Positions 5,776 through 31,535 of a stretch of 32,438 nucleotides of DNA are shown in pieces. The first letter of the stretch is position 1. Each line of letters opens with the position of its first letter. Location of the stretch: IMG/VR virus record IMGVR_UViG_2534681773_000029; one strand, given 5' to 3'. The stretch is from a virus (taxonomy: Duplodnaviria > Heunggongvirae > Uroviricota > Caudoviricetes). Position numbers and translations under genes: made by a program. Under the pieces are notes generated by a model. The model saw only the letters and a list, made by a program, of their open reading frames with translations. It was not told the origin of the DNA and did no database searches.

Positions 5776-5992
5776 GTAAAAATACAGCGTGATTTTATAT
5801 GTCTTTGAATGGATTATGCGAAGCACCTCTAAGGTAGATGAGGAGCAATAGCGTGTTGAATCAGAAGGCTAAATTGTATTGAATCGTTAGCATGTAATTG
5901 AAGGCAGCTATTTGATTCGAGTCATAAAAGAGCATCTATTTCGGTTAATAAAACCATTGCGAGTGACTTTATGTCGAAGCATAATTCATCTC

Positions 5993-6006
5993 GAGCGAAG
6001 TCTTGC
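5993..6006. repeat. 14-bp direct repeat GAGCGAAGTCTTGC, copy 1
   Basis: Exact match to 6257-6270; copy 1 sits just after a TTGCGA-N17-CATAAT promoter-like element (5957-5985). Confidence 0.7.
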
Positions 6007-6034
6007 TAGTCTTTCATCGGATTGATGACGGGCG

Positions 6035-6066
6035 CAAAAAAACCACCCTGGCAGGTGGTTTTTTTG
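6035..6066. terminator. Bidirectional intrinsic terminator (A-run, ACCACC-loop-GGTGGT hairpin, T7 run)
   Basis: aaaaaaaccaccctggcaggtggttttttt read directly; works on both strands. Confidence 0.6.
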
Positions 6067-6077
6067 TTTGAAGCATA

Positions 6078-6191
6078 CTAAAGAAAAATACTTACATGGA
6101 TATTACTGACGTTTACTGACAAACCACTCGGACTACCATATGGATAGCCAAAGAGGGCCAGAACGAGAATGCAGTAATAGCACTTCTTCAT
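6078..6191 (-). CDS. Candidate 37-aa hydrophobic peptide (MKKCYYCILVLALFGYPYGSPSGLSVNVSNIHVSIFL); possible type I toxin-like or small membrane protein
   Basis: ATG at 6191 preceded by AGGAGG; ends 12 nt before the terminator at 6035-6066; below the ORF-track length cutoff so hand-translated. Not a recognised family. Confidence 0.35.
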   Translation of the reverse strand: MKKCYYCILVLALFGYPYGSPSGLSVNVSNIHVSIFL

Positions 6192-6256
6192 ATCGCCTCC
6201 TGTAAGCAGAGGGCAATTTCCGCCGATATATGCGCTTCTAAGGCGGAGTGACTATT

Positions 6257-6270
6257 GAGCGAAGTCTTGC
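6257..6270. repeat. 14-bp direct repeat GAGCGAAGTCTTGC, copy 2 (in predicted 5' UTR of the small-peptide mRNA)
   Basis: Exact copy of 5993-6006; lies about 66 nt upstream of the peptide start on the minus strand. Confidence 0.7.
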
Positions 6271-6847
6271 CCTGAAATAATGCTCTGTTTAAACGCAAAG
6301 TGATCTGGCATATCACCGAACAGAGGACCTGAACAACACAACATATAGTATGTCGTTGTTTCTGGTTGCATTTTATGTTGTGTAATACTGGTTTTGCATC
6401 AAGGATGTTTGAGCTTTTTTTGATATAGCTCAAAGTAAAAAGCAGAGACTACGGATGATAAGGTCTTGAAAGCAATGTAAATTTTTTAAAGTTGTGAGTG
6501 GCTAGAAATGCACAGTTTCAATATGGCGGATTTAAACAAGTAATTAAAAATAGCGACATAAATTCCAATAAAATCATTAGGTTGCGTTTTCTGTGGAAAC
6601 TTCGGTGACTCTGAAATTTTCTTTTAGTGTCGCTGAGGTTTAACAACTCGCTGCGCAAGTAGTTAGTGTTTTTTTAACTCAATATTCTGATTTATAAGGT
6701 TTTTTATAAATCGTGGGCTGGTTGCGCGTATTCATCTCGTGTTATCAGCAAAGATAAGCTCTATATGCAGAACTGAATGCATATATGATGTCGAAAATGT
6801 TATGGGAAAACGTGGATTAGTGTTATAGTAATGGCTGAAAAACAGCC

Positions 6848-6876
6848 TTGACATAAAATAACAACTGTGATATGGC
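6848..6876 (+). promoter_or_regulatory. Possible promoter for the peptidase gene (TTGACA -35 at 6848-6853; weak -10 TATGGC after 17-nt spacer)
   Basis: Perfect -35 hexamer but poor -10; low confidence. Confidence 0.25.
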
Positions 6877-6912
6877 TGTGCATACTTAACTTTTTTAACG
6901 TAGGAGGCAACC

Positions 6913-7398
6913 ATGAGCTATGCAGCTAAAAAACTGCTTGACCGCTATTGGGATCGCCGACTACCTGTCGATCCGTTTAAGCTTGCTAAAGCGTGGGGTG
7001 CTCGTGTTGAAGCACTTGAGGAATCGGCTTATAACAACGATGGGTTAAGCGGTCTGGCTGTCATCAAAAAGGGTGTCCATAGGATTTATTTTGATTCTAG
7101 TGAACATTCTAATCGTCAACGTTTTACTGTTGCACACGAGTTAGGTCATCATGTGCTGGGGCATACCCAGGACGGAGAGTACCATCGGGATAATGTCGGG
7201 AATTATTCAACAGGTGCTCGTGATTATCGTGAGGTTGAAGCAAACAAGTTTGCTGCTGAGTTGTTAATGCCTGAGTCTGCTATACGTCAATTGGTATCCA
7301 GAGAAGGTATTGATAGCACTTTGAGATTAGCAAGCATCTTTAATGTATCAGAAGCCGCTATGCATTGGCGCTTAAAGAGCTTAGGAATGGCTTATTAA
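6913..7398 (+). CDS. ImmA/IrrE-family (M78-like) Zn metallopeptidase
   Basis: 161-aa ORF with AGGAGG SD; HEXXH motif (AHELGHHVLGH) and downstream EVEANKFAAELLMPE, the signature of ImmA/IrrE peptidases. No HTH partner gene adjacent. Confidence 0.8.
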   Translation: MSYAAKKLLDRYWDRRLPVDPFKLAKAWGARVEALEESAYNNDGLSGLAVIKKGVHRIYFDSSEHSNRQRFTVAHELGHHVLGHTQDGEYHRDNVGNYSTGARDYREVEANKFAAELLMPESAIRQLVSREGIDSTLRLASIFNVSEAAMHWRLKSLGMAY

Positions 7399-7423
7399 TT
7401 AGCCTTTAACTTTTAACCTGTTT

Positions 7424-7464
7424 AAAATCACCTTTACGTTTGTACATGTAAGGGTGATTTTTTT
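7424..7464 (+). terminator. Intrinsic terminator or attenuator downstream of peptidase gene
   Basis: Hairpin ATCACCTTTA / TAAGGGTGAT followed by T7, ending immediately before the ATG at 7465. Confidence 0.5.
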
Positions 7465-8064
7465 ATGGCTGATATTGATTTATCTGGACAGTCCCCAGAG
7501 CAAGGAACCACTCCTAAGGGCGATTTAGATCCTGATATCCTTATAAGGCGAGATAGACGGGATGGTATAGAGCGTAGAAGTATGCGATTAGTGCTCTCTG
7601 CCGTTGTGCTTTGTTTTGCTTGTACATTTCTATGGCAGGGGCTTAACTTTGCTTTGGCTGTTGGAAATGGCTTGCTGGAAGCGAAAAGCAGTATTGCCGC
7701 AGCGATAACACAAAAAGTAGATACACAAACTTGTGTTTCAGCAGAAAAATGTTCTGCTTTATCTTCGGATCCGAAGATGGCTGATGAGAGGATAACACCA
7801 TCTTCAGACACTAATAAAGTTAGAAAATCTATTTCTGGTTTATCCACCGATTGGTTATCGGCCAGTTCTCTAATAGCTATTGTTGCATTCATCCTTGGTG
7901 TGGGTTTAACTTTGCTTTTGACTCTTCTTAAATCAGCATTTCAACACCCGACAGATAAAGACTTTAGAACAAAGTCGACATCTAATACTATTGAGTTGGC
8001 CACGCCAATCAGTGAATTAATAATTGGTGTTCTGAATATAATTAAAGACAAACTATCTAAGTAA
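7465..8064 (+). CDS. Predicted membrane protein with two hydrophobic helices, unknown function
   Basis: 199-aa ORF; hydrophobic stretches RLVLSAVVLCFACTFLWQGLNFALAV and SSLIAIVAFILGVGLTLLLTLL; improbably long open frame for AT-rich DNA. Start uncertain: no good SD at 7465, internal Met at 7582. A minus-strand ORF 7434..7892 overlaps it. Confidence 0.4.
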   Translation: MADIDLSGQSPEQGTTPKGDLDPDILIRRDRRDGIERRSMRLVLSAVVLCFACTFLWQGLNFALAVGNGLLEAKSSIAAAITQKVDTQTCVSAEKCSALSSDPKMADERITPSSDTNKVRKSISGLSTDWLSASSLIAIVAFILGVGLTLLLTLLKSAFQHPTDKDFRTKSTSNTIELATPISELIIGVLNIIKDKLSK

Positions 8065-8106
8065 AGCATTAGTTGTGATTTTTTATTGGTTTTAGTGATA
8101 ATACAT

Positions 8107-8140
8107 CTCCAGTACTTATTGTTACTGGAGAGTATTTTTA
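8107..8140. terminator. Hairpin (CTCCAGTA / TACTGGAG) with T-rich tail between convergent genes
   Basis: Perfect 8-bp inverted repeat with 8-nt loop, followed by AGTATTTTTA. Confidence 0.4.
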
Positions 8141-8247
8141 GTCGTTTTATATTTTTAATGTTAGTGAATGATATTCACGAGAGTTCACGTTCGATGTGAT
8201 GTAATCGGGGGCGTTAACACCAAGAATCGCAACGAGTAATCGGCAAA

Positions 8248-9087
8248 TTAAAGCCTGCATTTGTTGTAATATGTCATCTCCATATTGATAATTGTTAATA
8301 GTGGTAAAGCCAAGTGGTTGACCATGAAACATAGCTTCATGAAAGTTTTCATTGCGGATGTTTGTAATGTTTTTTTGCCTGTAACCCATGATGGTCGTGG
8401 TATTCCATAAGTTTTGCAGATCCACTTCAAGCGCCTGGAGTGATTTAGAGTCTTTTCTGTACACTTGTTCTTTTCTGCCCATGTTAAAGCAAAGCAACTA
8501 TCCAGTGCCATATAAAGATACTGGAATTTTTCGAAGCTAAGGTATTGTGGGTTTTGGGATAAAAATAGTGCATGCACTATTGCTGCTATATTTATTGGTG
8601 CGTGTTTGGTTTTTGTCTCGCTAGACATGTATTTGAGTGCTAATTCTATAACCTCTTTTTCAGAGCACTTGACCAGAATAAAGTCAGTTAATTTGCTGGG
8701 TTTTATTGGGGTTGCGTCTAAAAAACCGGCATCAGTAGTTGTTAATCTTATCCCTTTGAAAAAAGACAGACACCACACAGCAAAATTGAGAGTTTCTAGT
8801 GAAGATGTATTTTTTAATTTTAGTGAGTGTGTTTTGGGTAAGCCAAATACTCGTTGGCTAAAAGGCATTGTGGATATGCCTCCATTGAGGTTATATACTT
8901 CTTGGTTTCCTGGGTATATCCAACCGTTAATAACATTTCTGTGATTGTTTATAAGATTTGTTTTTTCCGCTAGACCGGGTAAAGTAAGTAAAGAAAAATC
9001 ATCAGTTTCAACGTTAACTTCTACTGGATAGTATCCAAACTCAGCTTCAATATCATTGGATTGCTGTTCGTCAACTTTACCTTGCAT
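8248..9087 (-). CDS. Hypothetical protein of unknown family in cargo island; possibly frameshifted (see overlapping ORF 8147..8497)
   Basis: 279-aa minus-strand ORF; a second open frame continues to 8147. One extra A in the A7 run (plus-strand T7 at 8370-8376) would fuse them into about 313 aa. No recognisable catalytic motif. Confidence 0.45.
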   Translation of the reverse strand: MQGKVDEQQSNDIEAEFGYYPVEVNVETDDFSLLTLPGLAEKTNLINNHRNVINGWIYPGNQEVYNLNGGISTMPFSQRVFGLPKTHSLKLKNTSSLETLNFAVWCLSFFKGIRLTTTDAGFLDATPIKPSKLTDFILVKCSEKEVIELALKYMSSETKTKHAPINIAAIVHALFLSQNPQYLSFEKFQYLYMALDSCFALTWAEKNKCTEKTLNHSRRLKWICKTYGIPRPSWVTGKKTLQTSAMKTFMKLCFMVNHLALPLLTIINMEMTYYNKCRL

Positions 9088-9324
9088 ACATTGCTCCGGT
9101 CAAAAATAGGCTCGATAATTCTCGTAAGCCTATCATGTTCGCAAAGTATCCATACCTGTGGATTTTGTAAATTTAAGTTGATTTGTCATTAAATAAGCCG
9201 TTGCATGCAACAAGTGAATGTTTTTGCATGCGTCGGGGATGTCCGTTCAGGCTGCGTGCGGTCAGGACTGGTGCGGATCCATAGTATCTATGCAACTGCA
9301 TTAAAACCGCCCCATGAAGCGGGC

Positions 9325-9343
9325 GGGCGAGGCGGGGAAAGCA
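9325..9343. other. cos: cos site (19-nt cohesive-end sequence GGCGAGGCGGGGAAAGCAC)
   Basis: Exact match to the P2/P4 cohesive-end sequence as I recall it; lies in the expected place upstream of Q. Confidence 0.7.
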
Positions 9344-9486
9344 CTGCGCGCTGGCGGTGGTGCTGATTTTATTTTTTCAGCGTCTGAGCGCGTCGTGATG
9401 GCGTTTAGATTGTTCGCCGGGGCGTTGGTGTGTCTGCGGGCTGTTTTGTGCGGTGGTGAGCGTGTGAGGGCGTGATGGCGGGTTGT

Positions 9487-9508
9487 AAAAAAGCCGCCCG
9501 CAGGCGGC
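9487..9508 (-). terminator. Intrinsic terminator after Q (minus strand)
   Basis: GCCGCC-CGCA-GGCGGC hairpin with T6 on the minus strand, 6 nt past the Q stop. Confidence 0.5.
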
Positions 9509-9513
9509 GATGT

Positions 9514-10503
9514 TCAGCCGTTGTCAGTGTCCAGTGAGTAGTTTTTAAAGCGGATGACCTCCTGACCGAGCCAGCCGTTTATTTCCCGAATCCTGTCCTG
9601 TAACGGGATTAGCTCATTGCGGACAAAGACCTTTGCCACTTTCTCAATATCGCCCAGTGACCCGACGTTCTCCGGCTTGCCACCCATCAACTGAAAGGGG
9701 ATGCGGTGTGCGTCCAGCAGGTCAGCGGCGCTGGCTTTTTTGATATTAAAAAAATCGTCCTTCGTCGCCACTTCACTGAGCGGGATAATTTTAATGCCGT
9801 CGGCTTTCCCCTGCGGGGCATAGAGAAACAGGTTTTTAAAGTTGTTGCGGCCTTTCGACTTCACCATGTTTTCGCGAAGCATTTCGATATCGTTGCGATC
9901 CTGCACGGCATCGGTAACGTACATGATGTATCCGGCATGTGCGCCGTTTTCGTAATACTTGCGGCGGAACAGCGTGGCCGACTCATTCAGCCAGGCAGAG
10001 TTAAGGGCGCTGAGATATTCCGGCAGGCCATACAGCTCCTGATTAATATCCGGCTCCAGCAGGTGAAACACGGAGCCGGGCGTGAAAGGTGTCGGCTCGT
10101 TGAAGGACGGCACCCACCAGTAAACATCCTCCTCCACGCCACGACGGGTATATTTGGCCGGTGAGGTTTCCAGTCTGATGACCTTACCGGTGGTGCTGTA
10201 ACGCTTTTCCAGAAACGCATTACCGAACACCAGAAAATCCAGCACAAAGCGGCTGAAATCCTGCTGGGAAAGCCACGGGTGCGGGATAAACGTTGAGGCC
10301 AGAATATTACGTTTGACGTAAATCGGTGAGCTGTGATGCACGGCAGCACGCAGGCTTTTTGCCAGACCGGTAAAGCTGACCGGTGGCTCATACCATCTGC
10401 CGTTACTGATGCATTCGACGTAATCCAGAATGTCACGGCGGTCGAGTACCGGCACCGGCTCGCCAAAGGTGAATGCCTCCATTTTCGGGGCGCTGGCGGT
10501 CAT
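9514..10503 (-). CDS. Q: Portal protein gpQ
   Basis: 329-aa ORF matching P2 Q. A 15-codon ORF (10500..10547) starts at an ATG overlapping the P stop and would join in frame with one extra homopolymer base, giving 344 aa. Confidence 0.85.
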   Translation of the reverse strand: MTASAPKMEAFTFGEPVPVLDRRDILDYVECISNGRWYEPPVSFTGLAKSLRAAVHHSSPIYVKRNILASTFIPHPWLSQQDFSRFVLDFLVFGNAFLEKRYSTTGKVIRLETSPAKYTRRGVEEDVYWWVPSFNEPTPFTPGSVFHLLEPDINQELYGLPEYLSALNSAWLNESATLFRRKYYENGAHAGYIMYVTDAVQDRNDIEMLRENMVKSKGRNNFKNLFLYAPQGKADGIKIIPLSEVATKDDFFNIKKASAADLLDAHRIPFQLMGGKPENVGSLGDIEKVAKVFVRNELIPLQDRIREINGWLGQEVIRFKNYSLDTDNG

Positions 10504-10546
10504 TGTTTTTGCCGCTGGTCGCGGTGTTTTCCCTTTTTCTTGCTCA

Positions 10547-12319
10547 TCAGTAAAACTCCAGAATGGTGGATGTCAGCGGGGTGCTGATACCCGCGGTGAG
10601 TGGCTCATTTAACAGGGCATGCATGGTCGCCCAGGCGAGGTCGGCGTGGCTGGCTTCCTCGCTGCGGCTGGCCTCATAGGTGGCGCTGCGTCCGCTGCTG
10701 GTCATGGTCTTGCGGATAGCCATAAACGAGCTGGTGATGTCGGTGGCGCTGACGTCATATTCCAGACAGCCACGGCGAATAACGTCTTTTGCCTTGAGCA
10801 CCATTGCGGTTTTCATTTCCGGCGTGTAGCGGATATCGCGCGCGGCGGGATAGAACGAGCGCACGAGCTGGAACACGCCGACACCGAGGCCGGTGGCATC
10901 AATTCCGATGTATTCGACGTTGTATTTTTCGGTGAGTTTGCGGATGGATTCAGCCTGAGTGGCAAAGTCCATGCCTTTCCACTGGTGACGCTCAAGTATT
11001 CTGAATTTGCCACCGGCCACCACCGGCGGTGCCAGCACCACGCATCCGGCACTGTCGCCACGGTGTGACGGGTCGTAACCAATCCATACCGGGCGGGAGC
11101 CGAACGGATTCGCGGCAAACGGCGCATAGTCTTCCCATTCTTCCAGCGTGTCGACCATGCAGCGTTGCAGCTCCTCGAACGGGAACACCGACGCCTTGTC
11201 GTCAACAAATTCACACATGAACAGGTTTTTAAAATCGTCGGCGCTGTTTTCACGTTTGAGCTGCTCAATGTCGAACAGCGTGCAGCCGCCTTTCAGCGCG
11301 TCCTCAATGGTGACAATCTGCCGCCACTGGCCGTCCGCACAGAGAAGACCTCCGGCAAGGGCGTTATGACTGACGTCGATTTCCACGCGTTCGGCGGCGC
11401 TGGCGCGACCCCGGTTGAACAGTTCACCCGACCAGAACGGGTAGGCGTCGTGCGCCAGCGTGGACGGGGTGGAGAAATAGGTCGAGCGCAGGTGACTCTG
11501 TGAGGCCATACCTGATGCCACCTTACGCAGTACCTGAAAATTCGGGATCCAGAAAATCTCATCGACGTACAGGTCGCCGTTATGGCTCTGCGCGGTGTTG
11601 GAGTTGGTGCCGAGAAAAATCAGTTTTGCGCCGTTATTGCCCAGGACAATCGGGTCACCGGTCAGGTCAACGTCAACCAGCCGGGCAAAGGCGATGATGT
11701 ATTCGCGGAACACATACGCCTGCGTTTTACTGGCCGACAGAAAAATCTGGTTATGACCGGTTTTCAGGGCGCGCAGCAGCGCCTCGCGGGAAAAATAAAA
11801 CGTCGCGCCAATCTGGCGGGATTTCAGGATATCGCGGATGCGGTGCTCAAGCCCGGCGCGATACCAGTGCAACTGATATTCGAAAGACTGCTCAAAGAAA
11901 ATCTGCTCCAGCTTTTCGATGGCCTCGTCACTGAAAAAATTCTTTTTCGGTTTGCGACGCCCGCCCTTGTTGCGGTTAGCGACGTTCGGATTAAGGTCTG
12001 CCTCGTTGCCGGTCTGACTGTAACGGTTGACCCGTGCCAGTCGTTCAATCTGGCGTCCGAGCAGGTCAATTTCCTTGAAGTCACCGCCGGTTTTCTGCGG
12101 TTTGATGATGAGCTGGGTCAGCCTCGCTTCCAGACTCATTTCGACACGGCTGATGGGGGCAACGCTGTCCCAGCCGTCGCGCTGTTTCCAGCTCTGCACC
12201 GTCGGGCGTTTCATCTGCAACATGGCGGCAATCTGCGGCACGGAAAACCCCTGCCAGTACAGCAGCGCCGCCTGACGACGCGGATCGTGTAAAAGAGTGG
12301 TGTCTGTGGTGATGGTCAT
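10547..12319 (-). CDS. P: Terminase large subunit (ATPase) gpP
   Basis: ORF 10547..12349; ATG at 12319 (MTITTDTTLLHD) with GAGG SD gives 590 aa, the P2 P length. Confidence 0.9.
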   Translation of the reverse strand: MTITTDTTLLHDPRRQAALLYWQGFSVPQIAAMLQMKRPTVQSWKQRDGWDSVAPISRVEMSLEARLTQLIIKPQKTGGDFKEIDLLGRQIERLARVNRYSQTGNEADLNPNVANRNKGGRRKPKKNFFSDEAIEKLEQIFFEQSFEYQLHWYRAGLEHRIRDILKSRQIGATFYFSREALLRALKTGHNQIFLSASKTQAYVFREYIIAFARLVDVDLTGDPIVLGNNGAKLIFLGTNSNTAQSHNGDLYVDEIFWIPNFQVLRKVASGMASQSHLRSTYFSTPSTLAHDAYPFWSGELFNRGRASAAERVEIDVSHNALAGGLLCADGQWRQIVTIEDALKGGCTLFDIEQLKRENSADDFKNLFMCEFVDDKASVFPFEELQRCMVDTLEEWEDYAPFAANPFGSRPVWIGYDPSHRGDSAGCVVLAPPVVAGGKFRILERHQWKGMDFATQAESIRKLTEKYNVEYIGIDATGLGVGVFQLVRSFYPAARDIRYTPEMKTAMVLKAKDVIRRGCLEYDVSATDITSSFMAIRKTMTSSGRSATYEASRSEEASHADLAWATMHALLNEPLTAGISTPLTSTILEFY

Positions 12320-20652: not shown

Positions 20653-21256
20653 TTCGCGACTGCTGCCAACCGGCTCATCACCGCTTGAAGTTGCCGCCGC
20701 AAAAGCCTGTGCGGAAATTGAAAAAACACCGGTCAGTATTCGTGAGCTGTGGAACCCGGACACCTGCCCGGCAAATCTGCTGCCGTGGCTGGCGTGGTCA
20801 TTTTCGGTTGACCGCTGGGATGATAAGTGGCCGGAAGCGACAAAACGCGCTGTTATCCGCGATGCGTATTTCATTCACTGCCATAAGGGCACTATAGGCG
20901 CAATCCGGCGTGTGGTGGAGCCGCTCGGCTATCTGATTGAGGTGAGGGAGTGGTGGCAGCTCAACGAGGAGCCGGGGACGTTCCGCATCGTTGTTGGCGT
21001 GCTTGAGCAGGGTATTACCGAGGAAATGTATCAGGAGCTGGAGCGTCTCGTTGCTGATGCAAAACCGGCAAGCCGCCATCTGACGGGACTGGCTATCAGT
21101 TTAAGTACAACCGGCAACATTTTTGCCGGTGCGGGATGCTATCACGGTGACGCCCTGACGGTTTATCCCTACACCCCGGAGGCCATTATTGTCGGAGGGG
21201 ATTATTTCCCAGCCTCGGCCATTCATTTAATTGATAACCTGAGAGTAAACGCATGA
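20645..21256 (+). CDS. I: Baseplate protein gpI
   Basis: 203-aa ORF with GGGAGG SD, overlapping J stop and H start. Confidence 0.8.
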   Translation: MSDSRLLPTGSSPLEVAAAKACAEIEKTPVSIRELWNPDTCPANLLPWLAWSFSVDRWDDKWPEATKRAVIRDAYFIHCHKGTIGAIRRVVEPLGYLIEVREWWQLNEEPGTFRIVVGVLEQGITEEMYQELERLVADAKPASRHLTGLAISLSTTGNIFAGAGCYHGDALTVYPYTPEAIIVGGDYFPASAIHLIDNLRVNA

Positions 21257-22611
21257 CAGTGAAATACTACGCCATTCTGACTAATCAGGGCGCGGCACGG
21301 CTGGCTAACGCGACGATGCTCGGCAGTAAGCTGAATCTGACGCAAATGGCCGTTGGTGATGCGAATGGTGTCTTGCCGACACCAGACCCGGCACAGACAA
21401 AACTGATTAACCAGAAACGCATCGCGCCGCTGAATCTTCTGAGTGTTGACCCGAACAACCAGAGCCAGATTATTGCGGAGCAAATCATCCCTGAGAACGA
21501 GGGCGGATTCTGGATCCGTGAGATTGGGCTTTATGATGATGAAGGCGTACTCATTGCGGTGGCGAACTGCCCGGAAACGTACAAACCGCAGTTGCAGGAA
21601 GGCAGTGGTCGTACCCAGACTATCCGCATGATTCTGGTTGTCACGAATACCGAAGCTATTACGCTGAAAATCGACCCGTCGGTGGTACTGGCGACCCGTA
21701 AATACGTGGATGATGAAGTCCTGGAATTAAGGCTGTATGTGGATGACCAGATGAGAAAACACATTGCCGCACAGGACCCTCATACCCAGTATGCACAGAA
21801 ACATAATCCGACATTTACCGGAGAACCAAAAGCGCCGACGCCTGCCGCAGGAAATAACACCACGCGGATTGCGACCACTGAGTTTGTTCAGGCCGCTATT
21901 ACCGCTCTGATTAACGGCGCGCCAGCCACGCTGGACACACTGAAAGAAATTGCCGCAGCCATTAACAATGACCCGAAATTCAGCGCCACCATTAACAATG
22001 CGCTGTCAGGTAAGCAGCCACTGGATGAGACGCTAACTCATTTGAGTGGGAAGGATGTTGCCGGTCTTCTCGCATACCTTGGTTTGGGAGAAGGTGCTCC
22101 AGCTATTGGCGTTCCGTTCTTCTGGCCGTCCGCAGCAATGCCAGATACCGTAATCGATAGCTGGTCCAGCATGGTGTTTTTGAAGTTCAACGGCGCGAAA
22201 TTCTCTGCCACTGATTACCCTGTGCTGGCGAAAGTGTTTCCGGCGCTGGCATTACCTGACGCACGCGGTGATTTCATTCGTATCTGGGATGACGGGCGCG
22301 GGATTGATGTCGGACGTACCCTACTTTCAGGGCAATCACACACAATTATGGATCATGCACACAATATGGAATTGTGGACGGGGGACGGGCTTGCCGCAGG
22401 AAGTGCACGGGAAGGAGTAAACCCAGGAATACTGGCTACATATGGTGACGGGGGAATAGTTAAAACGGACGAACCCGGTCTTAGGGTGCCTTCCTCACTA
22501 CGAGCTCTTAGCTCGCGTAGTGTTAAACGTTATGGTGAAATTAGTGGAAATGTAGGTACAGAAACCCGTCCACGAAATATTGCATTTAACTTTCTGGTGA
22601 GGGCTAAATAA
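21253..22611 (+). CDS. H: Tail fibre protein gpH (constant N-terminal part plus the variable C-terminal cassette in its current orientation)
   Basis: 452-aa ORF; the crossover site at 22067-22092 lies in frame within it, separating constant and invertible parts. Confidence 0.85.
   Translation: MTVKYYAILTNQGAARLANATMLGSKLNLTQMAVGDANGVLPTPDPAQTKLINQKRIAPLNLLSVDPNNQSQIIAEQIIPENEGGFWIREIGLYDDEGVLIAVANCPETYKPQLQEGSGRTQTIRMILVVTNTEAITLKIDPSVVLATRKYVDDEVLELRLYVDDQMRKHIAAQDPHTQYAQKHNPTFTGEPKAPTPAAGNNTTRIATTEFVQAAITALINGAPATLDTLKEIAAAINNDPKFSATINNALSGKQPLDETLTHLSGKDVAGLLAYLGLGEGAPAIGVPFFWPSAAMPDTVIDSWSSMVFLKFNGAKFSATDYPVLAKVFPALALPDARGDFIRIWDDGRGIDVGRTLLSGQSHTIMDHAHNMELWTGDGLAAGSAREGVNPGILATYGDGGIVKTDEPGLRVPSSLRALSSRSVKRYGEISGNVGTETRPRNIAFNFLVRAK
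22067..22092. repeat. 26-bp invertase crossover site, left (TTCTCGCATACCTTGGTTTGGGAGAA), inside H
   Basis: Imperfect dyad; its right half is the reverse complement of the left half of the site at 23964-23989 (15-bp exact inverted repeat TTGGTTTGGGAGAAG). Confidence 0.75.
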
Positions 22612-23204
22612 TGAAACCTGTTTTTGATGAAAATGGGCTGGCTACAGTACCGGGTAATATGCGTTGTTTTTATTATGAGGCAGTTACGTATGAATATACT
22701 GGCTGGTCTGATGAATATATTAATACTGGCGTAAGTATGCCCGCCTGTTCCACTGGTATTGACCCGGGCGAATACATTCCGGGGAAAGTGGCAGTATTTA
22801 CGGGTAAGGGATGGAGCCATGAAGAAGACCACCGCAATGAGACTGTTTACTCAATCGAAAATGGCGCAGCTGTTACAGTGGATTATATCGGTGCCATCAA
22901 AGACGGTTATGTCACGCTTTCACCGTTAACGCCATACGATAAATGGGATGGTGAGAAATGGGTGACAGATACTGAGGCACAGCATAGTGCCGCAGTAGAC
23001 GCAGCAGAAGCACAGCGCCAGTCGCTGATTGATGCTGCAATGGCTTCCATCAGTCTGATTCAACTGAAATTACAGGCCGGACGGAAGCTGACGCAGGCAG
23101 AAACAACCCGACTTAACGCCGTGCTGGATTACATTGACGCGGTGACGGTAACAGATACCAGCACCGCGCCGGATGTCATCTGGCCTGAACTGCCGGAGGC
23201 GTAG
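22611..23204 (+). CDS. G: Tail fibre assembly protein gpG (cassette in expressed orientation)
   Basis: 197-aa ORF after H; C-terminal motif (DYIDAVTVTDTSTAPDVIWPELP) also present in the minus-strand G' copy. Confidence 0.8.
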   Translation: MKPVFDENGLATVPGNMRCFYYEAVTYEYTGWSDEYINTGVSMPACSTGIDPGEYIPGKVAVFTGKGWSHEEDHRNETVYSIENGAAVTVDYIGAIKDGYVTLSPLTPYDKWDGEKWVTDTEAQHSAAVDAAEAQRQSLIDAAMASISLIQLKLQAGRKLTQAETTRLNAVLDYIDAVTVTDTSTAPDVIWPELPEA

Positions 23205-23616
23205 GCCATTCAATATCTGGCGCACCGGAAGTATCGACCAGTTCCAGTGCGTCCAGATAATCCAGCCACAAATTATATTGCGCCAGTTCCTCACCTTTCA
23301 GGCGACCAATCGCCGCTTTACCAGGCCATTGCTTACTGTTTATGTATTCGTTGACCTGATTAATCAATTGCTGCTTTTCCAGTTCGGCTGCGGCAATTTG
23401 TTCCTCATGAGTTGGCGGTGGAATATCAATCCATGCAGGCATTCCGTCGATGACACCTCTGTATTTTCCTTCTGGTGCTTCCTTCATAAATTCGGCGGCA
23501 ACAGTGTCGTCAATTTCGATTCCATCATCGGGCCATTCGCCGGATTCCTGATAAGCGATTTTAAGCTCCACAGGGAAAAACGCATTTTTATCGGCGCTGA
23601 AAATATATTTCTGCAT
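23176..23616 (-). CDS. Alternative tail fibre assembly protein (G'), silent orientation
   Basis: 146-aa minus-strand ORF convergent with G, 3' ends overlapping; tail-fibre-chaperone-like C-terminus (DYLDALELVDTSGAPDIEWPTPP). Confidence 0.75.
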   Translation of the reverse strand: MQKYIFSADKNAFFPVELKIAYQESGEWPDDGIEIDDTVAAEFMKEAPEGKYRGVIDGMPAWIDIPPPTHEEQIAAAELEKQQLINQVNEYINSKQWPGKAAIGRLKGEELAQYNLWLDYLDALELVDTSGAPDIEWPTPPAVQAR

Positions 23617-23618
23617 TT

Positions 23619-23977
23619 CTACCGTCCTATCGAAATATAACTGAATCTGTATTGCTGTGAGATATCACTGGTTGCCACACGCCACGCTGAATTACTGATA
23701 TGTTCAAAATTTACAGACAAAACCTGCGGGGCAGGATTCGACGGGTCTGACTGAACGGCATCAGACATAACACTGACTGAAACCATCGGCTGATTAGGGA
23801 ATGGTATAGGGAAGTGTCCACTGATAAAGCGGGTCGAGTTTCCTGCAAAAGTGCCAAACTGAACAATATATCCACCTGGTAGCCTGAACCATCCCGAACC
23901 AGAAGCGAATGCTCCCATATCCGGTATCTGATTATCTCCTGTGCCCACATTCCGTTTTGCCGCTTCTCCCAAACCAA
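23619..23977 (-). CDS. Alternative tail fibre C-terminal cassette (Hc'), promoterless until inversion
   Basis: Minus-strand frame 23619..24017 shares the in-frame junction GLGE with H at the crossover site; would fuse to the constant H N-terminus after inversion. Confidence 0.7.
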
Positions 23978-23989
23978 CGTTTATGAAAA
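23964..23989. repeat. 26-bp invertase crossover site, right (TTCTCCCAAACCAACGTTTATGAAAA)
   Basis: Inverted relative to the 22067-22092 site; sits about 55 bp upstream of the invertase gene; hix/gix/cix-like dyad with central AA. Confidence 0.75.
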
Positions 23990-24044
23990 TGCAGAGATAA
24001 CGGGCAACTGGCATCATCTCCGGTTTTTATTCAGGGGGATGCTC

Positions 24045-24638
24045 ATGCTTATTGGCTATGTACGCGTGTCAACAAATGACCAGAACACGGAATTGCAGCG
24101 TAACGCGCTGGAGTGTGCAGGATGTGAGCTGATTTTTGAGGATAAAATCAGCGGCACGAAGTCCGACCGACCGGGACTGAAAAAACTGCTCAGAACATTA
24201 TCAGCAGGTGACACTCTGGTGGTCTGGAAGCTGGACAGGCTGGGGCGTAGTATGCGGCATCTGGTCATTCTGGTTGAGGAACTGCGCGAACGCGGCGTTA
24301 ATTTTCGCAGCCTGACGGATGCCATTGATACCAGCACGCCGATGGGACGTTTTTTCTTTCATGTGATGGGTGCCCTGGCTGAAATGGAACGAGAACTCAT
24401 TGTCGAGCGGACTCGCGCCGGACTGGAAGCGGCCAGAGCCAAAGGTCGTATTGGTGGCAGACGTCCGAAACTCACCGCGAGTGAGTGGGAGCAGGTCGGA
24501 CGGTTGCTGGCTCCGGGGGAATCTCGTCAACGCGTGGCACTGATTTTTGATATTGGCCTGTCCACGCTCTATAAAAAATTTCCCTCATCAGCGACAAAGA
24601 ATAAATTGTGTCATCCCTTAGCCAACCGGGACAAATAG
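24045..24638 (+). CDS. Serine DNA invertase, Gin/Hin/Cin/Pin family
   Basis: N-terminus MLIGYVRVSTNDQNTELQRNAL with catalytic serine context and C-terminal HTH region; start at 24045 preferred (GGGGG SD) over 24039. Confidence 0.9.
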   Translation: MLIGYVRVSTNDQNTELQRNALECAGCELIFEDKISGTKSDRPGLKKLLRTLSAGDTLVVWKLDRLGRSMRHLVILVEELRERGVNFRSLTDAIDTSTPMGRFFFHVMGALAEMERELIVERTRAGLEAARAKGRIGGRRPKLTASEWEQVGRLLAPGESRQRVALIFDIGLSTLYKKFPSSATKNKLCHPLANRDK

Positions 24639-26475: not shown

Positions 26476-26751
26476 ATGAACAAAGAAAATGTGATTACCC
26501 TGGACAATCCGGTCAAGCGTGGTGAGCAGGTCATCGAACAGGTCACGCTGATGAAACCCAATGCCGGGACGCTGCGCGGTGTCAGTCTGGCAGCGGTCGC
26601 GAACTCCGAAGTCGATGCACTGATTAAGGTGCTGCCGCGCATGACGGCACCGATGCTGACCGAGCAGGAAGTCGCCGCGCTGGAACTGCCTGACCTTGTG
26701 GCGCTGGCCGGTAAGGTGGTCGGTTTTTTGTCGCCGAACTCGGTTCAGTGA
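26476..26751 (+). CDS. E: Tail assembly chaperone gpE
   Basis: 91-aa ORF ending just after a TTTTTTG slippery heptamer. Confidence 0.85.
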   Translation: MNKENVITLDNPVKRGEQVIEQVTLMKPNAGTLRGVSLAAVANSEVDALIKVLPRMTAPMLTEQEVAALELPDLVALAGKVVGFLSPNSVQ

Positions 26752-26903
26752 CGTTTCCGAAAAATCTGTCGGTCGATGACCTGATGGCGGATGTGGCAGT
26801 GATATTTCACTGGCCGCCATCAGAACTGTATCCCATGAGCCTGACCGAACTCATCACATGGCGCGAAAAGGCGCTCCGGCGAAGCGGAAACACGAATGAG
26901 TGA
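26476..26903 (+). CDS. gpE+E' fusion made by programmed -1 ribosomal frameshift at slippery site 26724-26730
   Basis: The -1 frame is open from the slip site to TGA at 26901-26903, overlapping the T start; hand-translated extension VAELGSVTFPKNL...WREKALRRSGNTNE. Confidence 0.75.
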
Positions 26904-29343
26904 CAATGTAAAATTACAGGTATTGCTCAGGGCTGTTGACCAGGCATCCCGCCCGTTTAAATCCATCCGCACAGCGAGCAAATCGCTGTCGGGGGATATC
27001 CGGGAAACACAAAAATCACTGCGCGAGCTGAACGGTCAGGCATCCCGTATTGAGGGATTCCGCAAGACCAGTGCACAGCTCGCCGTGACTGGTCATGCAC
27101 TTGAAAAGGCTCGGCAGGAGGCCGAAGCCCTTGCCACACAGTTTAAAAATACCGAACGTCCGACACGTGCTCAGGCGAAAGTGCTGGAATCCGCAAAGCG
27201 TGCGGCGGAGGACTTACAGGCGAAATATAACCGCCTGACGGATTCCGTTAAACGCCAGCAGCGGGAACTGGCCGCTGTGGGAATTAATACCCGCAATCTT
27301 GCACATGATGAGCAGGGACTGAAAAACCGTATCAGTGAAACCACCGCACAGCTTAACCGTCAGCGTGACGCACTAGCGCGTGTCAGTGCACAACAGGCAA
27401 AACTTAACGCAGTAAAACAGCGTTATCAGGCCGGAAAGGAGCTGGCCGGAAATATGGCCTCAGTGGGCGCTGCCGGTGTGGGGATTGCGGCGGCGGGAAC
27501 GATGGCCGGTGTTAAGCTGCTGATGCCCGGTTATGAGTTTGCGCAGAAAAACTCAGAATTGCAGGCCGTGCTAGGTGTGGCAAAAGACTCCGCCGAAATG
27601 GCCGCGCTCCGCAAACAGGCGCGTCAGCTTGGCGACAATACCGCCGCCTCGGCAGATGATGCAGCCGGTGCGCAGATTATTATTGCGAAAGCCGGTGGGG
27701 ATGTTGATGCCATTCAGGCGGCAACGCCGGTCACGCTGAATATGGCGCTGGCGAACCGTCGCACGATGGAAGAAAACGCCGCCCTGCTGATGGGGATGAA
27801 ATCCGCCTTTCAGCTTTCAAACGATAAGGTCGCTCATATCGGGGATGTTCTCTCCATGACGATGAACAAAACCGCCGCCGATTTTGACGGTATGAGCGAT
27901 GCGCTGACCTATGCCGCACCTGTGGCAAAAAATGCCGGTGTCAGCATTGAAGAAACCGCCGCAATGGTCGGGGCGCTGCATGATGCAAAAATCACAGGCT
28001 CAATGGCGGGGACGGGAAGCCGTGCCGTGTTAAGTCGCCTGCAGGCACCAACGGGAAAAGCATGGGATGCACTCAAAGAGCTTGGCGTGAAAACCTCAGA
28101 CAGTAAGGGGAATACCCGACCAATATTTACCATTCTGAAAGAAATGCAGGCCAGTTTTGAGAAAAACCGGCTCGGTACTGCCCAGCAGGCTGAATACATG
28201 AAAACTATTTTCGGGGAGGAGGCCAGCTCAGCCGCCGCCGTGCTGATGACTGCCGCCTCAACCGGAAAGCTGGACAAACTGACCGCTGCGTTTAAAGCCT
28301 CAGACGGGAAGACCGCCGAGCTGGTAAATATCATGCAGGACAACCTAGGCGGTGACTTTAAAGAGTTTCAGTCCGCTTATGAGGCGGTGGGGACTGACCT
28401 GTTTGACCAGCAGGAAGGCGCACTGCGTAAGCTCACGCAGACGGCCACAAAGTATGTGTTAAAACTCGACGGCTGGATCCAGAAAAACAAATCACTGGCG
28501 TCAACCATCGGCCTTATTGTCGGTGGTGCACTGGCACTGACTGGTGTCATCGGTGCCATTGGCCTCGTAGCCTGGCCGGTTATCACCGGCATCAATGCCA
28601 TCATCGCGGCAGCAGGCGCAATGGGGGCAATCTTCACGACGGTTGGCAGTGCTGTTATGACGGCCATCGGGGCGATTAGCTGGCCGGTTGTGGCCGTGGT
28701 GGCTGCAATTGTCGCCGGGGCGTTGCTTATCCGTAAATACTGGGAGCCTGTCAGCGCATTCTTTGGCGGTGTGGTTGAAGGGCTGAAGGCAGCATTTGCG
28801 CCAGTGGGGGAACTGTTCACGCCACTTAAGCCGGTGTTTGACTGGCTGGGTGAAAAGTTACAGGCCGCGTGGCAGTGGTTTAAAAACCTGATTGCCCCGG
28901 TCAAAGCTACCCAGGACACCCTGAACCGTTGCCGTGACACGGGCGTCATGTTCGGGCAGGCACTGGCTGACGCGCTGATGCTGCCGCTTAATGCGTTCAA
29001 CAAACTGCGCAGTGGTATTGACTGGGTACTGGAAAAACTCGGTGTTATCAACAAAGAGTCTGACGCACTTGACCAGACTGCCGCCAGAACTCATGCCGCC
29101 ACGTATGGCACCGGTGGGTATATTCCGGCGACCAGTTCTTATGCAGGCTATCAGGCTTATCAGCCGGTCACGGCACCGGCTGGCCGCTCTTATGTGGACC
29201 AGAGTAAAAACGAATATCACATAAGCCTGACGGGGGGGACTGCGCCGGGGACACAGCTTGACCGCCAGTTACAGGATGCGCTCGAAAAATACGAGCGGGA
29301 TAAACGTGCGCGCGCCCGTGCCAGCATGATGCATGACGGTTAA
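26896..29343 (+). CDS. T: Tail tape measure protein gpT
   Basis: 815-aa ORF, coiled-coil N-terminus and Gly/Ala-rich hydrophobic middle, matches P2 T length. Confidence 0.9.
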   Translation: MSDNVKLQVLLRAVDQASRPFKSIRTASKSLSGDIRETQKSLRELNGQASRIEGFRKTSAQLAVTGHALEKARQEAEALATQFKNTERPTRAQAKVLESAKRAAEDLQAKYNRLTDSVKRQQRELAAVGINTRNLAHDEQGLKNRISETTAQLNRQRDALARVSAQQAKLNAVKQRYQAGKELAGNMASVGAAGVGIAAAGTMAGVKLLMPGYEFAQKNSELQAVLGVAKDSAEMAALRKQARQLGDNTAASADDAAGAQIIIAKAGGDVDAIQAATPVTLNMALANRRTMEENAALLMGMKSAFQLSNDKVAHIGDVLSMTMNKTAADFDGMSDALTYAAPVAKNAGVSIEETAAMVGALHDAKITGSMAGTGSRAVLSRLQAPTGKAWDALKELGVKTSDSKGNTRPIFTILKEMQASFEKNRLGTAQQAEYMKTIFGEEASSAAAVLMTAASTGKLDKLTAAFKASDGKTAELVNIMQDNLGGDFKEFQSAYEAVGTDLFDQQEGALRKLTQTATKYVLKLDGWIQKNKSLASTIGLIVGGALALTGVIGAIGLVAWPVITGINAIIAAAGAMGAIFTTVGSAVMTAIGAISWPVVAVVAAIVAGALLIRKYWEPVSAFFGGVVEGLKAAFAPVGELFTPLKPVFDWLGEKLQAAWQWFKNLIAPVKATQDTLNRCRDTGVMFGQALADALMLPLNAFNKLRSGIDWVLEKLGVINKESDALDQTAARTHAATYGTGGYIPATSSYAGYQAYQPVTAPAGRSYVDQSKNEYHISLTGGTAPGTQLDRQLQDALEKYERDKRARARASMMHDG

Positions 29344-29357
29344 GGAGGTGACGAAAA

Positions 29358-29836
29358 ATGATGCTCGCGTTAGGTATGTTTGTTTTTATGCGCCAGACGC
29401 TGCCACACCAGACCATGCAGCGTGAATCAGATTATCGCTGGCCGTCAAATTCCCGTATCGGCAAACGGGATGCCTTTCAGTTTCTCGGTGTTGGCGAGGA
29501 AAATATCACGCTTGCCGGTGTGCTTTATCCAGAGCTGACCGGCGGCAAGCTGACGATGACCACGCTCAGGCTGATGGCTGAGGAAGGCCGGGCGTGGCCG
29601 TTGCTGGATGGCACCGGCATGATTTACGGCATGTATGTCATCAGCAGGGTGAGTGAAACAGGGAGTATTTTTTTGCAGACGGCACACCCCGGAAAATTGA
29701 TTTTACGCTGTCGCTCACCCGCGTTGATGAATCACTGGCCGCGCTTTATGGCGATATCGGTAAACAGGCGGAATCGCTCATCGGTAAGGCTGGCAGTATG
29801 GCGACTAAATTCACGGATATGACGGGGGCGGGATAA
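29358..29836 (+). pseudogene. U: Tail protein gpU, disrupted by a frameshift in a T7 homopolymer (29668-29674)
   Basis: Frame from 29358 runs into Arg/Ser-rich sequence and stops at 29822; an adjacent frame (29657..29836) encodes protein-like FADGTPRKIDFTLSLTRVDESL... and ends TAATG overlapping D. One extra T restores 159 aa. Confidence 0.6.
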
Positions 29837-30999
29837 TGCTGGATGCACTGACATTTGATGCAGGCAGTACGCTGACGCCGGATTACATGCTGATGCTCGA
29901 CAGCAGGGATATTACCGGCAATATCAGCGACCGTCTGATGAGCATGACCCTGACGGATAGTCGGGGTTTTGAGGCTGACCAGCTTGATATTGAACTGAAC
30001 GATGCCGACGGGCAGGTCGGGATGCCGGTTCGTGGTGCTGTTCTGACGGTGTATATCGGCTGGAAAGGTTTTGCCCTGGTATGCAAAGGGAAATTCACCG
30101 TTGATGAGGTTGAACACCGGGGCGTGCCGGATGTTGTCACCATCCGCGCCCGGAGTGCAGATTTTCGCGGGACGCTCAATTCCCGCCGGGAAGGCTCCTG
30201 GCATGACACCACGCTCGGTGCGATTGTTGAGGCGATAGCCACCCGTAACAGGCTGGAAGCCAGTGTCGCTCCGTCACTGGCCGAAATAAAAATTCCACAC
30301 ATCGACCAGTCGCAGGAGTCTGATGCGAAATTCCTGACCCGTCTTGCAGAACGCAACGGCGGTGAGGTGTCGGTAAAAATGGGAAAACTGTTGTTTCTCA
30401 AAGCGGGGCAGGGAGTGACGGCCAGCGGTAAAAAAATCCCGCAGGTCACCATAACCCGCAGCGACGGCGACCGCCATCATTTTGCGATTGCTGACCGTGG
30501 AGCCTACACCGGTGTAACGGCAAAATGGCTACACACTAAAGACCCGAAGCCGCAAAAGCAGAAGGTAAAACTGAAACGCAAAAAGAAAGAGAAACACCTG
30601 CGTGCACTGGAGCACCCGAAAGCGAAACCGGTCAGGCAGAAGAAAGCGCCAAAAGTACCGGAAGCGCGCGAAGGTGAATACATGGCCGGTGAGGCTGACA
30701 ACGTTTTTGCCCTGACCACGGTATATGCCACGAAAGCGCAGGCCATGCGCGCCGCTCAGGCGAAGTGGGACAAACTGCAACGGGGTGTGGCGGAGTTCTC
30801 CATCAGCCTGGCTACCGGTCGGGCAGATATTTACACGGAAACGCCGGTCAAAGTGTCAGGCTTTAAGCGCGTCATAGACGAGCAGGACTGGACAATCACT
30901 AAGGTGACACATTTTCTGAATAATAGCGGCTTCACGACGTCCTTGGAGCTTGAGGTCAGGCTTTCCGATGTGGAGTACGAAACAGAAGATGATGAGTGA
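29836..30999 (+). CDS. D: Tail protein gpD
   Basis: 387-aa ORF, matches P2 D length; start overlaps the restored U stop. Confidence 0.9.
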   Translation: MLDALTFDAGSTLTPDYMLMLDSRDITGNISDRLMSMTLTDSRGFEADQLDIELNDADGQVGMPVRGAVLTVYIGWKGFALVCKGKFTVDEVEHRGVPDVVTIRARSADFRGTLNSRREGSWHDTTLGAIVEAIATRNRLEASVAPSLAEIKIPHIDQSQESDAKFLTRLAERNGGEVSVKMGKLLFLKAGQGVTASGKKIPQVTITRSDGDRHHFAIADRGAYTGVTAKWLHTKDPKPQKQKVKLKRKKKEKHLRALEHPKAKPVRQKKAPKVPEAREGEYMAGEADNVFALTTVYATKAQAMRAAQAKWDKLQRGVAEFSISLATGRADIYTETPVKVSGFKRVIDEQDWTITKVTHFLNNSGFTTSLELEVRLSDVEYETEDDE

Positions 31000-31080: not shown

Positions 31081-31299
31081 ATGTTTCATTGTCCTTTATG
31101 CCAGCATGCCGCACATGCGCGTACAAGTCGCTATATCACTGACACGACAAAAGAGCGTTATCACCAGTGCCAGAACGTGAATTGCAGCGCCACGTTCATC
31201 ACTTATGAGTCGGTACAGCGATACATCGTGAAGCCGGGAGAAGTCCACGCCGTGAGGCCGCACCCGTTGCCGTCAGGGCAGCAAATTATGTGGATGTGA
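31081..31299 (+). CDS. ogr: Late-gene transcriptional activator Ogr (zinc finger)
   Basis: ATG at 31081 (MFHCPLCQHAAHARTSRY...CQNVNC) with GAGG SD gives 72 aa, matching P2 Ogr; the track start at 31006 is an upstream extension. Confidence 0.9.
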   Translation: MFHCPLCQHAAHARTSRYITDTTKERYHQCQNVNCSATFITYESVQRYIVKPGEVHAVRPHPLPSGQQIMWM

Positions 31300-31454: not shown

Positions 31455-31535
31455 ATCCTCAATTTGCCTGCTGCTTAATGCATTGCAGATGATTTGCTTC
31501 CGTTATACTAGCGTCAGTTGATAGCGGGAGTATTT

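Follow-up and report, generated by a model that had tools for sequence, protein, structure and literature searches.

Gene U in a P2-like prophage

The tail gene U begins with the ATG at 29358 on the plus strand of the window, by which we mean the whole stretch of 32,438 nt that was analysed. In its zero frame the gene stays open to a TGA at 29820-29822 and encodes a product of 154 aa (29358..29822), as assigned from the ORF list and translation, from Pfam family PF06995 (Phage_P2_GpU) and from the match to P2 gpU. Read directly from the sequence, a run of exactly seven T occupies 29668..29674 on the plus strand, flanked by A29667 and G29675. The zero-frame product comprises 105 authentic gpU residues, followed by Leu106 and 48 more out-of-frame residues; after residue 105 it reads LQTAHPGKLILRCRSPALMNHWPRFMAISVNRRNRSSVRLAVWRLNSRI, an Arg/Ser-rich sequence unlike gpU. 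The 3′ part of the gene was found in the −1 frame (29676..29836, plus strand), where the translation ADGTPRKIDF...MTGAG corresponds to intact gpU residues 107-159. This frame reads FFADGTPRKIDFTLSLTRVDESLAALYGDIGKQAESLIGKAGSMATKFTDMTGAG and stops at the TAA at 29834-29836, which overlaps the D start codon (ATG, 29836-29838) as TAATG. A first-pass annotation, made from the letters of the window, had described a T7 run, a U frame that passes through it into Arg/Ser-rich sequence and stops at 29822, and a protein-like adjacent frame that ends in the TAATG overlap with D. The sequence and the ORF translation agreed with all of this, and the adjacent frame holds P2 gpU residues 105-159.

Comparison with P2 gave the same picture. 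In a tblastn search, P2 gpU (NP_046783.1) residues 1-114 matched 29358-29699 at 93.9% identity, and residues 105-159 matched 29669-29833 in the other frame at 96.4% identity, which puts the amino acid identity at 94% for the first half and 96% for the second. The P2 record gives U as 480 nt and 159 aa. Restoration of one base in the window also produced 159 aa, the P2 length given in the first-pass annotation, with the same TAATG overlap with the D start; relative to P2, the window lacks one base, the C of codon 105, and is left with the 154-aa zero-frame product. Both versions belonged to PF06995 (cut-off 27.5 bits), the zero-frame product with 122.4 bits and the restored product with 149.7 bits, though the restored product covered positions 1-120 of 120 and the zero-frame product only 1-107 of 120. 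No single uninterrupted ORF spanned the whole gpU domain (about 159 aa) in the window, the remainder lying in the −1 frame. The pattern is the split of a well-conserved gene and not a chance arrangement.

The window is a P2-like prophage. A tblastn search with every annotated P2 protein recovered the whole complement, arranged as in P2: B, A, Q, P, O, N, M, L, X, Y, K, lysA/B/C, R, S, V, W, J, I, FI, FII, E, T, U, D and ogr. The same search showed divergence from P2 in the integrase, repressor, cox, tail fibre and cargo genes. U lies at its expected place in the FETUD operon, between the tape-measure gene T (26896-29343; ORF list and tblastn) and the baseplate hub gene D (29836..30999, plus strand; ORF list), and the order T-U-D-ogr is common to P2 and the window. 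D is intact, with 387 aa, and was matched by P2 gpD residues 1-387 at 98.7% identity. The prophage ends just after ogr (31081-31296), and the host gene fieF begins at 31518, with Pfam Cation_efflux and PFK domains among the neighbours. The host is E. coli, and the integration site adjoins fieF. The closest relative among complete E. coli genomes was only about 97.7% identical to the prophage over 25 kb.

Ancestral sequence and predicted effect on gpU

Intact homologs read ATTTTCTTTG at the site of the T7 run, that is, T4-C-T3, with codons ATT TTC TTT followed by GCA. When 5,426 complete E. coli genomes and a phage collection were searched, the close matches all spanned 482 bases against the 481-base query, equivalent to one extra base. 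The T4-C-T3 form was present in P2 itself and in 80/80 gpU loci fetched from IMG/VR. The U gene of strain E302 was base-for-base identical to that of the window except for the added C. Alleles were counted with queries of 90-100 nt, read by identity bands. With the flanks of the window, the T4-C-T3 allele (91-mer) was exact in 456 complete-genome records and the T8 allele (100-mer) in one, GN04592, which encodes an intact 159-aa gpU; the T7 allele of the window (90-mer) was exact in 0/1432 matching complete-genome records. Among complete E. coli genomes, an uninterrupted T8 was found in GN04592 (NZ_CP095538.1, 1242-1721) alone, where it arises by a synonymous TTC-to-TTT change. Exact pattern scans of IMG/VR for the T7 version and for the T8 version gave zero matches each, and the U deletion occurred in 0/40 phage records among those listed (the best 40 of 74 matched).

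Since the homologs carry T4-C-T3, the lesion amounts to a missing C in Phe codon 105 (TTC), whose loss itself creates the T7 run. The first-pass annotation had taken the missing base to be an eighth T, which does not agree with the C found in P2, in the IMG/VR loci and in the complete-genome records. T8 is not the common allele and was present in one genome only. As nearly all homologs carry T4-C-T3, the site was not a homopolymer hot spot before the mutation, and the T7 run is the product of the mutation rather than its substrate. The T8 allele of GN04592 could represent an intermediate toward T7. A two-step route is thus possible, in which a synonymous C-to-T change gave a short-lived T8 and replication slippage then gave T7.

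The gpU domain was compared with its only solved relative by sequence, PA0626 of pyocin R2 (PDB 6U5B). The domain aligned to PA0626 residues 159-286 (E = 5e-13), through gpU residue 126 in the restored frame. The alignment takes in the conserved G-PRK--F-L stretch, which is now out of frame in the window. PA0626, the 'ripcord' or tube initiator of R-type pyocins, differs from P2 gpU in having an extra N-terminal ripcord domain. P2 gpU is itself the tube initiator, present in six copies per virion on the gpD hub trimer, and it touches the wedge triplex through a C-terminal helix that was modelled as far as T150 (bioRxiv 10.64898/2026.09.14.750843). In the P2 record, U is given as an essential tail protein. 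The frameshift takes away the last conserved beta-strands of the gpU fold together with the C-terminal helix. Because these elements are lost and U is essential in P2, their removal should abolish function. The lysogen would then be unable to build normal tails, leaving the prophage defective or nearly so. D may well be spared: with the premature stop only 13 nt upstream of the D ATG, reinitiation on D is probably little affected.

We consider it highly probable that the T7 allele is a genuine, heritable one-base deletion that inactivates the essential tail gene U of this P2-like prophage and that has been inherited vertically. An otherwise identical intact allele (ATT TTC TTT GCA) would have lost the C of Phe codon 105, either directly or by way of a rare synonymous T8 intermediate and replication slippage. 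Translation leaves the conserved frame after residue 105, adds 49 unrelated residues and ends 13 nt before D. The truncated gpU, deprived of its last conserved beta-strands and of the wedge-contacting C-terminal helix, would not support normal tails. The deletion allele is passed on vertically among isolates resembling DEC11D, a small lineage of E. coli. An occasional −1 slip of the ribosome, or stuttering of RNA polymerase at the T7 run, would remake gpU at an estimated level of the order of 0.1%, as an undesigned consequence of the deletion.

A lesion of this kind, a frameshift in an essential tail gene of a prophage, is an ordinary one. It means that a prophage that looks complete by gene content nevertheless has a broken essential tail gene, and a tool that called it intact would be in error.

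The slippery heptamer created by the deletion

The deletion created a T_TTT_TTG heptamer at 29669..29675 on the plus strand, in phase with the U zero frame (atT TTT TTG; phase counted from 29358). It has the X_XXY_YYZ form in the upstream phase, with codons ATT TTT TTG. P2 frameshifts at TTTTTTG (PMC3091744), and the −1 frameshift that yields E and E+E′ was described by Christie et al. 2002 and by Xu, Hendrix & Duda 2004, as cited in PMC3091744. In the window, the programmed −1 heptamer of gene E (ggT TTT TTG), identified from sequence and phase, lies at 26724..26730 on the plus strand, and the P2 record marks the same motif. The E/E′ and U sites therefore share the same heptamer in the same codon phase. 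Both also have a Shine–Dalgarno (SD)-like purine block a few bases upstream, and neither has a downstream hairpin. The block at the E/E′ site is AAGGTGG (26713-26719), 3-4 nt upstream of the heptamer; that at the U site is AGGGAG (29660-29665), 3 nt before the heptamer and 4 nt from the P-site codon. The E site, however, is conserved in P2-like phages and gives two needed proteins, whereas the heptamer in U belongs to a rare mutant allele that P2 and nearly all relatives lack, and the zero-frame product of that allele has no conserved counterpart. The feature in U is ordinary prophage decay, and the heptamer it shares with E/E′ is a coincidence.

A slip at the new heptamer would nevertheless remake the protein. 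A simulated tandem −1 slip gave a 159-aa gpU with the single change F106L, and a simulated P-site slip gave a gpU identical to the intact protein of E302. An extra U added by RNA polymerase at the T7 run would also give wild-type gpU. This raises the alternative that the frameshift is leaky or compensated, such that ribosomal −1 slips or polymerase U addition yield useful gpU and the prophage is viable. In favour of this, the heptamer lies in phase and does not differ from the −1 site that the phage itself uses in E, and six copies of gpU suffice per virion (bioRxiv 10.64898/2026.09.14.750843). E. coli often bypasses indels that shift the frame within homonucleotide runs, more so as the run lengthens (Rockah-Shmuel et al. 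2013, PMC3812077), and compensated 'savior' indels are an established concept (Atkins et al. 2016, PMC5009743). The U deletion is likewise a one-base indel that leaves a mononucleotide run; against the bypassed cases stands a slip expected at only about 0.1%, from the published efficiency of the heptamer.

That efficiency weighs against a useful level of rescue. In E. coli, UUUUUUG alone gave 0.118% −1 frameshifting over a background of about 0.055%, rising to 0.25% with the IS911 stimulators and to 0.77% with the IS3 pseudoknot (PMC4066793). No stimulatory element, whether a downstream structure or an SD-like sequence at 10-14 nt, was found at the U site: folds of the 60 and 100 nt downstream of the heptamer had z-scores of +0.8 and +1.2 relative to shuffles, with no stable structure. 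In dnaX and prfB, −1 shifts are stimulated at an SD spacing of 10-14 nt and +1 shifts are favoured at short spacing. AGGGAG is too close to the U heptamer for the former, and at its spacing a +1 shift is favoured over a −1 shift. The runs for which transcriptional slippage has been documented are of about nine, compared with seven at U. The absence of the deletion from the phage records listed also speaks against leakage. Since bypass of indels in such runs is known, a trickle of full-length gpU is plausible, though the published efficiencies make functional rescue unlikely. Given the in-phase heptamer and the T7 run, the U defect may be leaky, and with only six gpU needed per virion the loss of tail formation may be less than complete. 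Overall, we regard rescue by leakage as unlikely. If it were true, this would be a natural structural-gene frameshift rescued by a slippery motif that the phage uses deliberately elsewhere.

The distribution of the allele was considered in the same light. The sequence backgrounds that carried T7 numbered at least three, and the attachment sites two. The window-type background lies at the fieF site. A contig of metagenome assembly ERZ27254721 (k141_59586, L004) carries the same U as the window with a different D, and a second contig of that assembly (k141_60208, L097; U at 6231-6695) is a 2.4% divergent P2-like prophage beside pflB/focA that also carries T7. Both contigs come from one metagenome. 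Three backgrounds would not be expected of a dead allele confined to one clone, and the spread could reflect recombination or gene conversion among co-resident P2-like prophages, recurrent mutation, or transfer by viable phage. The last of these touches a further variant, in which the deletion is tolerated: the new T_TTT_TTG copy and stuttering at U7 would give enough gpU for the prophage to remain viable and mobile, which would explain the three haplotypes and two attachment sites. We judge this unlikely. An inactivating deletion remains the reading that we prefer.

Copies of the allele and other regions of the prophage

Independent NCBI, Logan and ENA assemblies together gave 11 public contigs that encode the exact 154-aa product, and every copy fetched carried T7. 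These included GCA_026221475.1 (NCBI), identical to the window over the 6.1 kb compared, GCA_000250175.2 (NCBI), ERR162636 (a Logan assembly of a raw run) and ERZ27254721 (an ENA metagenome assembly with k141_ contigs). The pipelines behind them differ, comprising a GenBank draft (AIGY01), a third-party NCBI assembly (DAJXQS01), Logan and ENA. The protein has been deposited as EHX05144.1, EHX15588.1, ELE4891990.1 and ELI3104382.1, with one source named 'phage P2 GpU family protein [Escherichia coli DEC11D]'. The 154-aa 'GpU family protein' of GenBank is thus a frameshift product, which is a matter for its annotation. Intact gpU of the same sequence belongs to a cluster of 4142 members and was seen on 1000 contigs or more. 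The intact 159-aa gpU is thus the common form, and the only homologs of the zero-frame tail lie in a six-member cluster made up of frameshift alleles. With its frame broken relative to intact homologs, and the same break in independent assemblies, U has the character of a frameshift pseudogene.

These copies bear directly on the possibility of a sequencing or assembly error, in which the true genome would have an intact U and a base was dropped in a T-rich stretch. In favour of an error, none of the complete (finished) E. coli genomes contained the exact 90-mer of the window. In addition, one noisy assembly of long reads (L096) has a different one-base deletion at the same spot, together with many broken genes, and shows that errors of this kind exist in public data. 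Different laboratories and assemblers, however, agree on the identical T7 sequence, and what is missing is a C that separates two T runs and no unit of a homopolymer, which makes a one-off error unlikely for the T7 allele. We therefore consider an error improbable. Among the three options offered in the first-pass annotation, the inactivating mutation was supported and the sequencing indel was not; the slippage-prone site stood only as an accidental by-product, the T7 run and its T_TTT_TTG being created by the deletion, and the site is unconserved and gave no sign of use.

Other one-base deletions, independent of this one and all within about 30 nt, were found in the small cluster of the 154-aa product. 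In these frameshift alleles a C was lost from CCCC (P0002), a T from T4 (P0003) and an A (P0005). A further member (P0006) lost a T from T3, giving T4-C-T2, in an assembly with many fragmented genes. It had been considered as a second T7 background and was set aside, the deletion being a different one and the broken genes pointing to probable sequencing noise.

The weakest alternative, an evolved recoding or phase-variation site in which the T tract is kept as a frameshift signal or as an on/off switch for the tail, has in its favour the in-phase heptamer and the occurrence of both T7 and T8 in nature, yet it is very improbable, since the tract is C-interrupted in P2, in 80/80 IMG/VR loci and in 456 records (all reading ATTTTCTTTG in frame, without the heptamer and two-frame layout), T8 was seen once and T7 on about a dozen contigs, the zero-frame tail lacks homologs beyond the six-member cluster, and the search for a stimulatory element at the heptamer was empty. 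Programmed recoding and phase variation at U were both rejected because the site is not conserved; nor was an uninterrupted tract maintained with varying length among close relatives, as at a phase-variation locus.

Apart from U, the P2 morphogenetic, lysis and replication genes were all full length by tblastn, with the sole exception of the 5′ end of the portal gene Q on the minus strand. There, at 10500-10548, the window reads ATGAGCAAGAAAAAGGG, with A5 in place of the A6 of P2 and of all 60 phage records listed. As a result, Q loses its frame at codon 5, and a 15-codon remnant ends at a TGA that overlaps the ATG of Met16 (ATGA), from which a 329-aa ORF provides the remainder of Q (9514-10503, minus strand). 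The same deletion was present in the DEC11D contig and in several unrelated genomes, and in further genomes this A-rich leader had lost one base in other ways. In P2 the N-terminus is cleaved from the mature portal, for which the model begins at residue 27 (bioRxiv 10.64898/2026.09.14.750843). As the mature portal lacks this N-terminus, the Q truncation may be harmless and tolerated. That would probably leave U as the one clearly disabling lesion of the prophage.

Two other regions differ from P2 in content. The segment at 21253-24638 occupies the place of fun(Z) in P2 and resembles an invertible tail-fibre module. It contains a tail-fibre gene (21253-22611), a tail-fibre assembly gene (22611-23204, plus strand), a second, inverted tail-fibre assembly gene (23176-23616, minus strand), an additional ORF (23619-24017, minus strand) and a Hin/Gin-type serine invertase with Resolvase and HTH_7 domains (24039-24638). 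In P2-like phages, accessory and defence genes are known to collect between A and Q, which is a hot spot for them. In the window this interval holds a cargo region at 5776-9500 that replaces P2 orf91, tin and old, and that encodes an IrrE-like M78 peptidase (6913-7398) and two ORFs with no Pfam match, of 199 aa (7465-8064) and 279 aa (8248-9087, minus strand).
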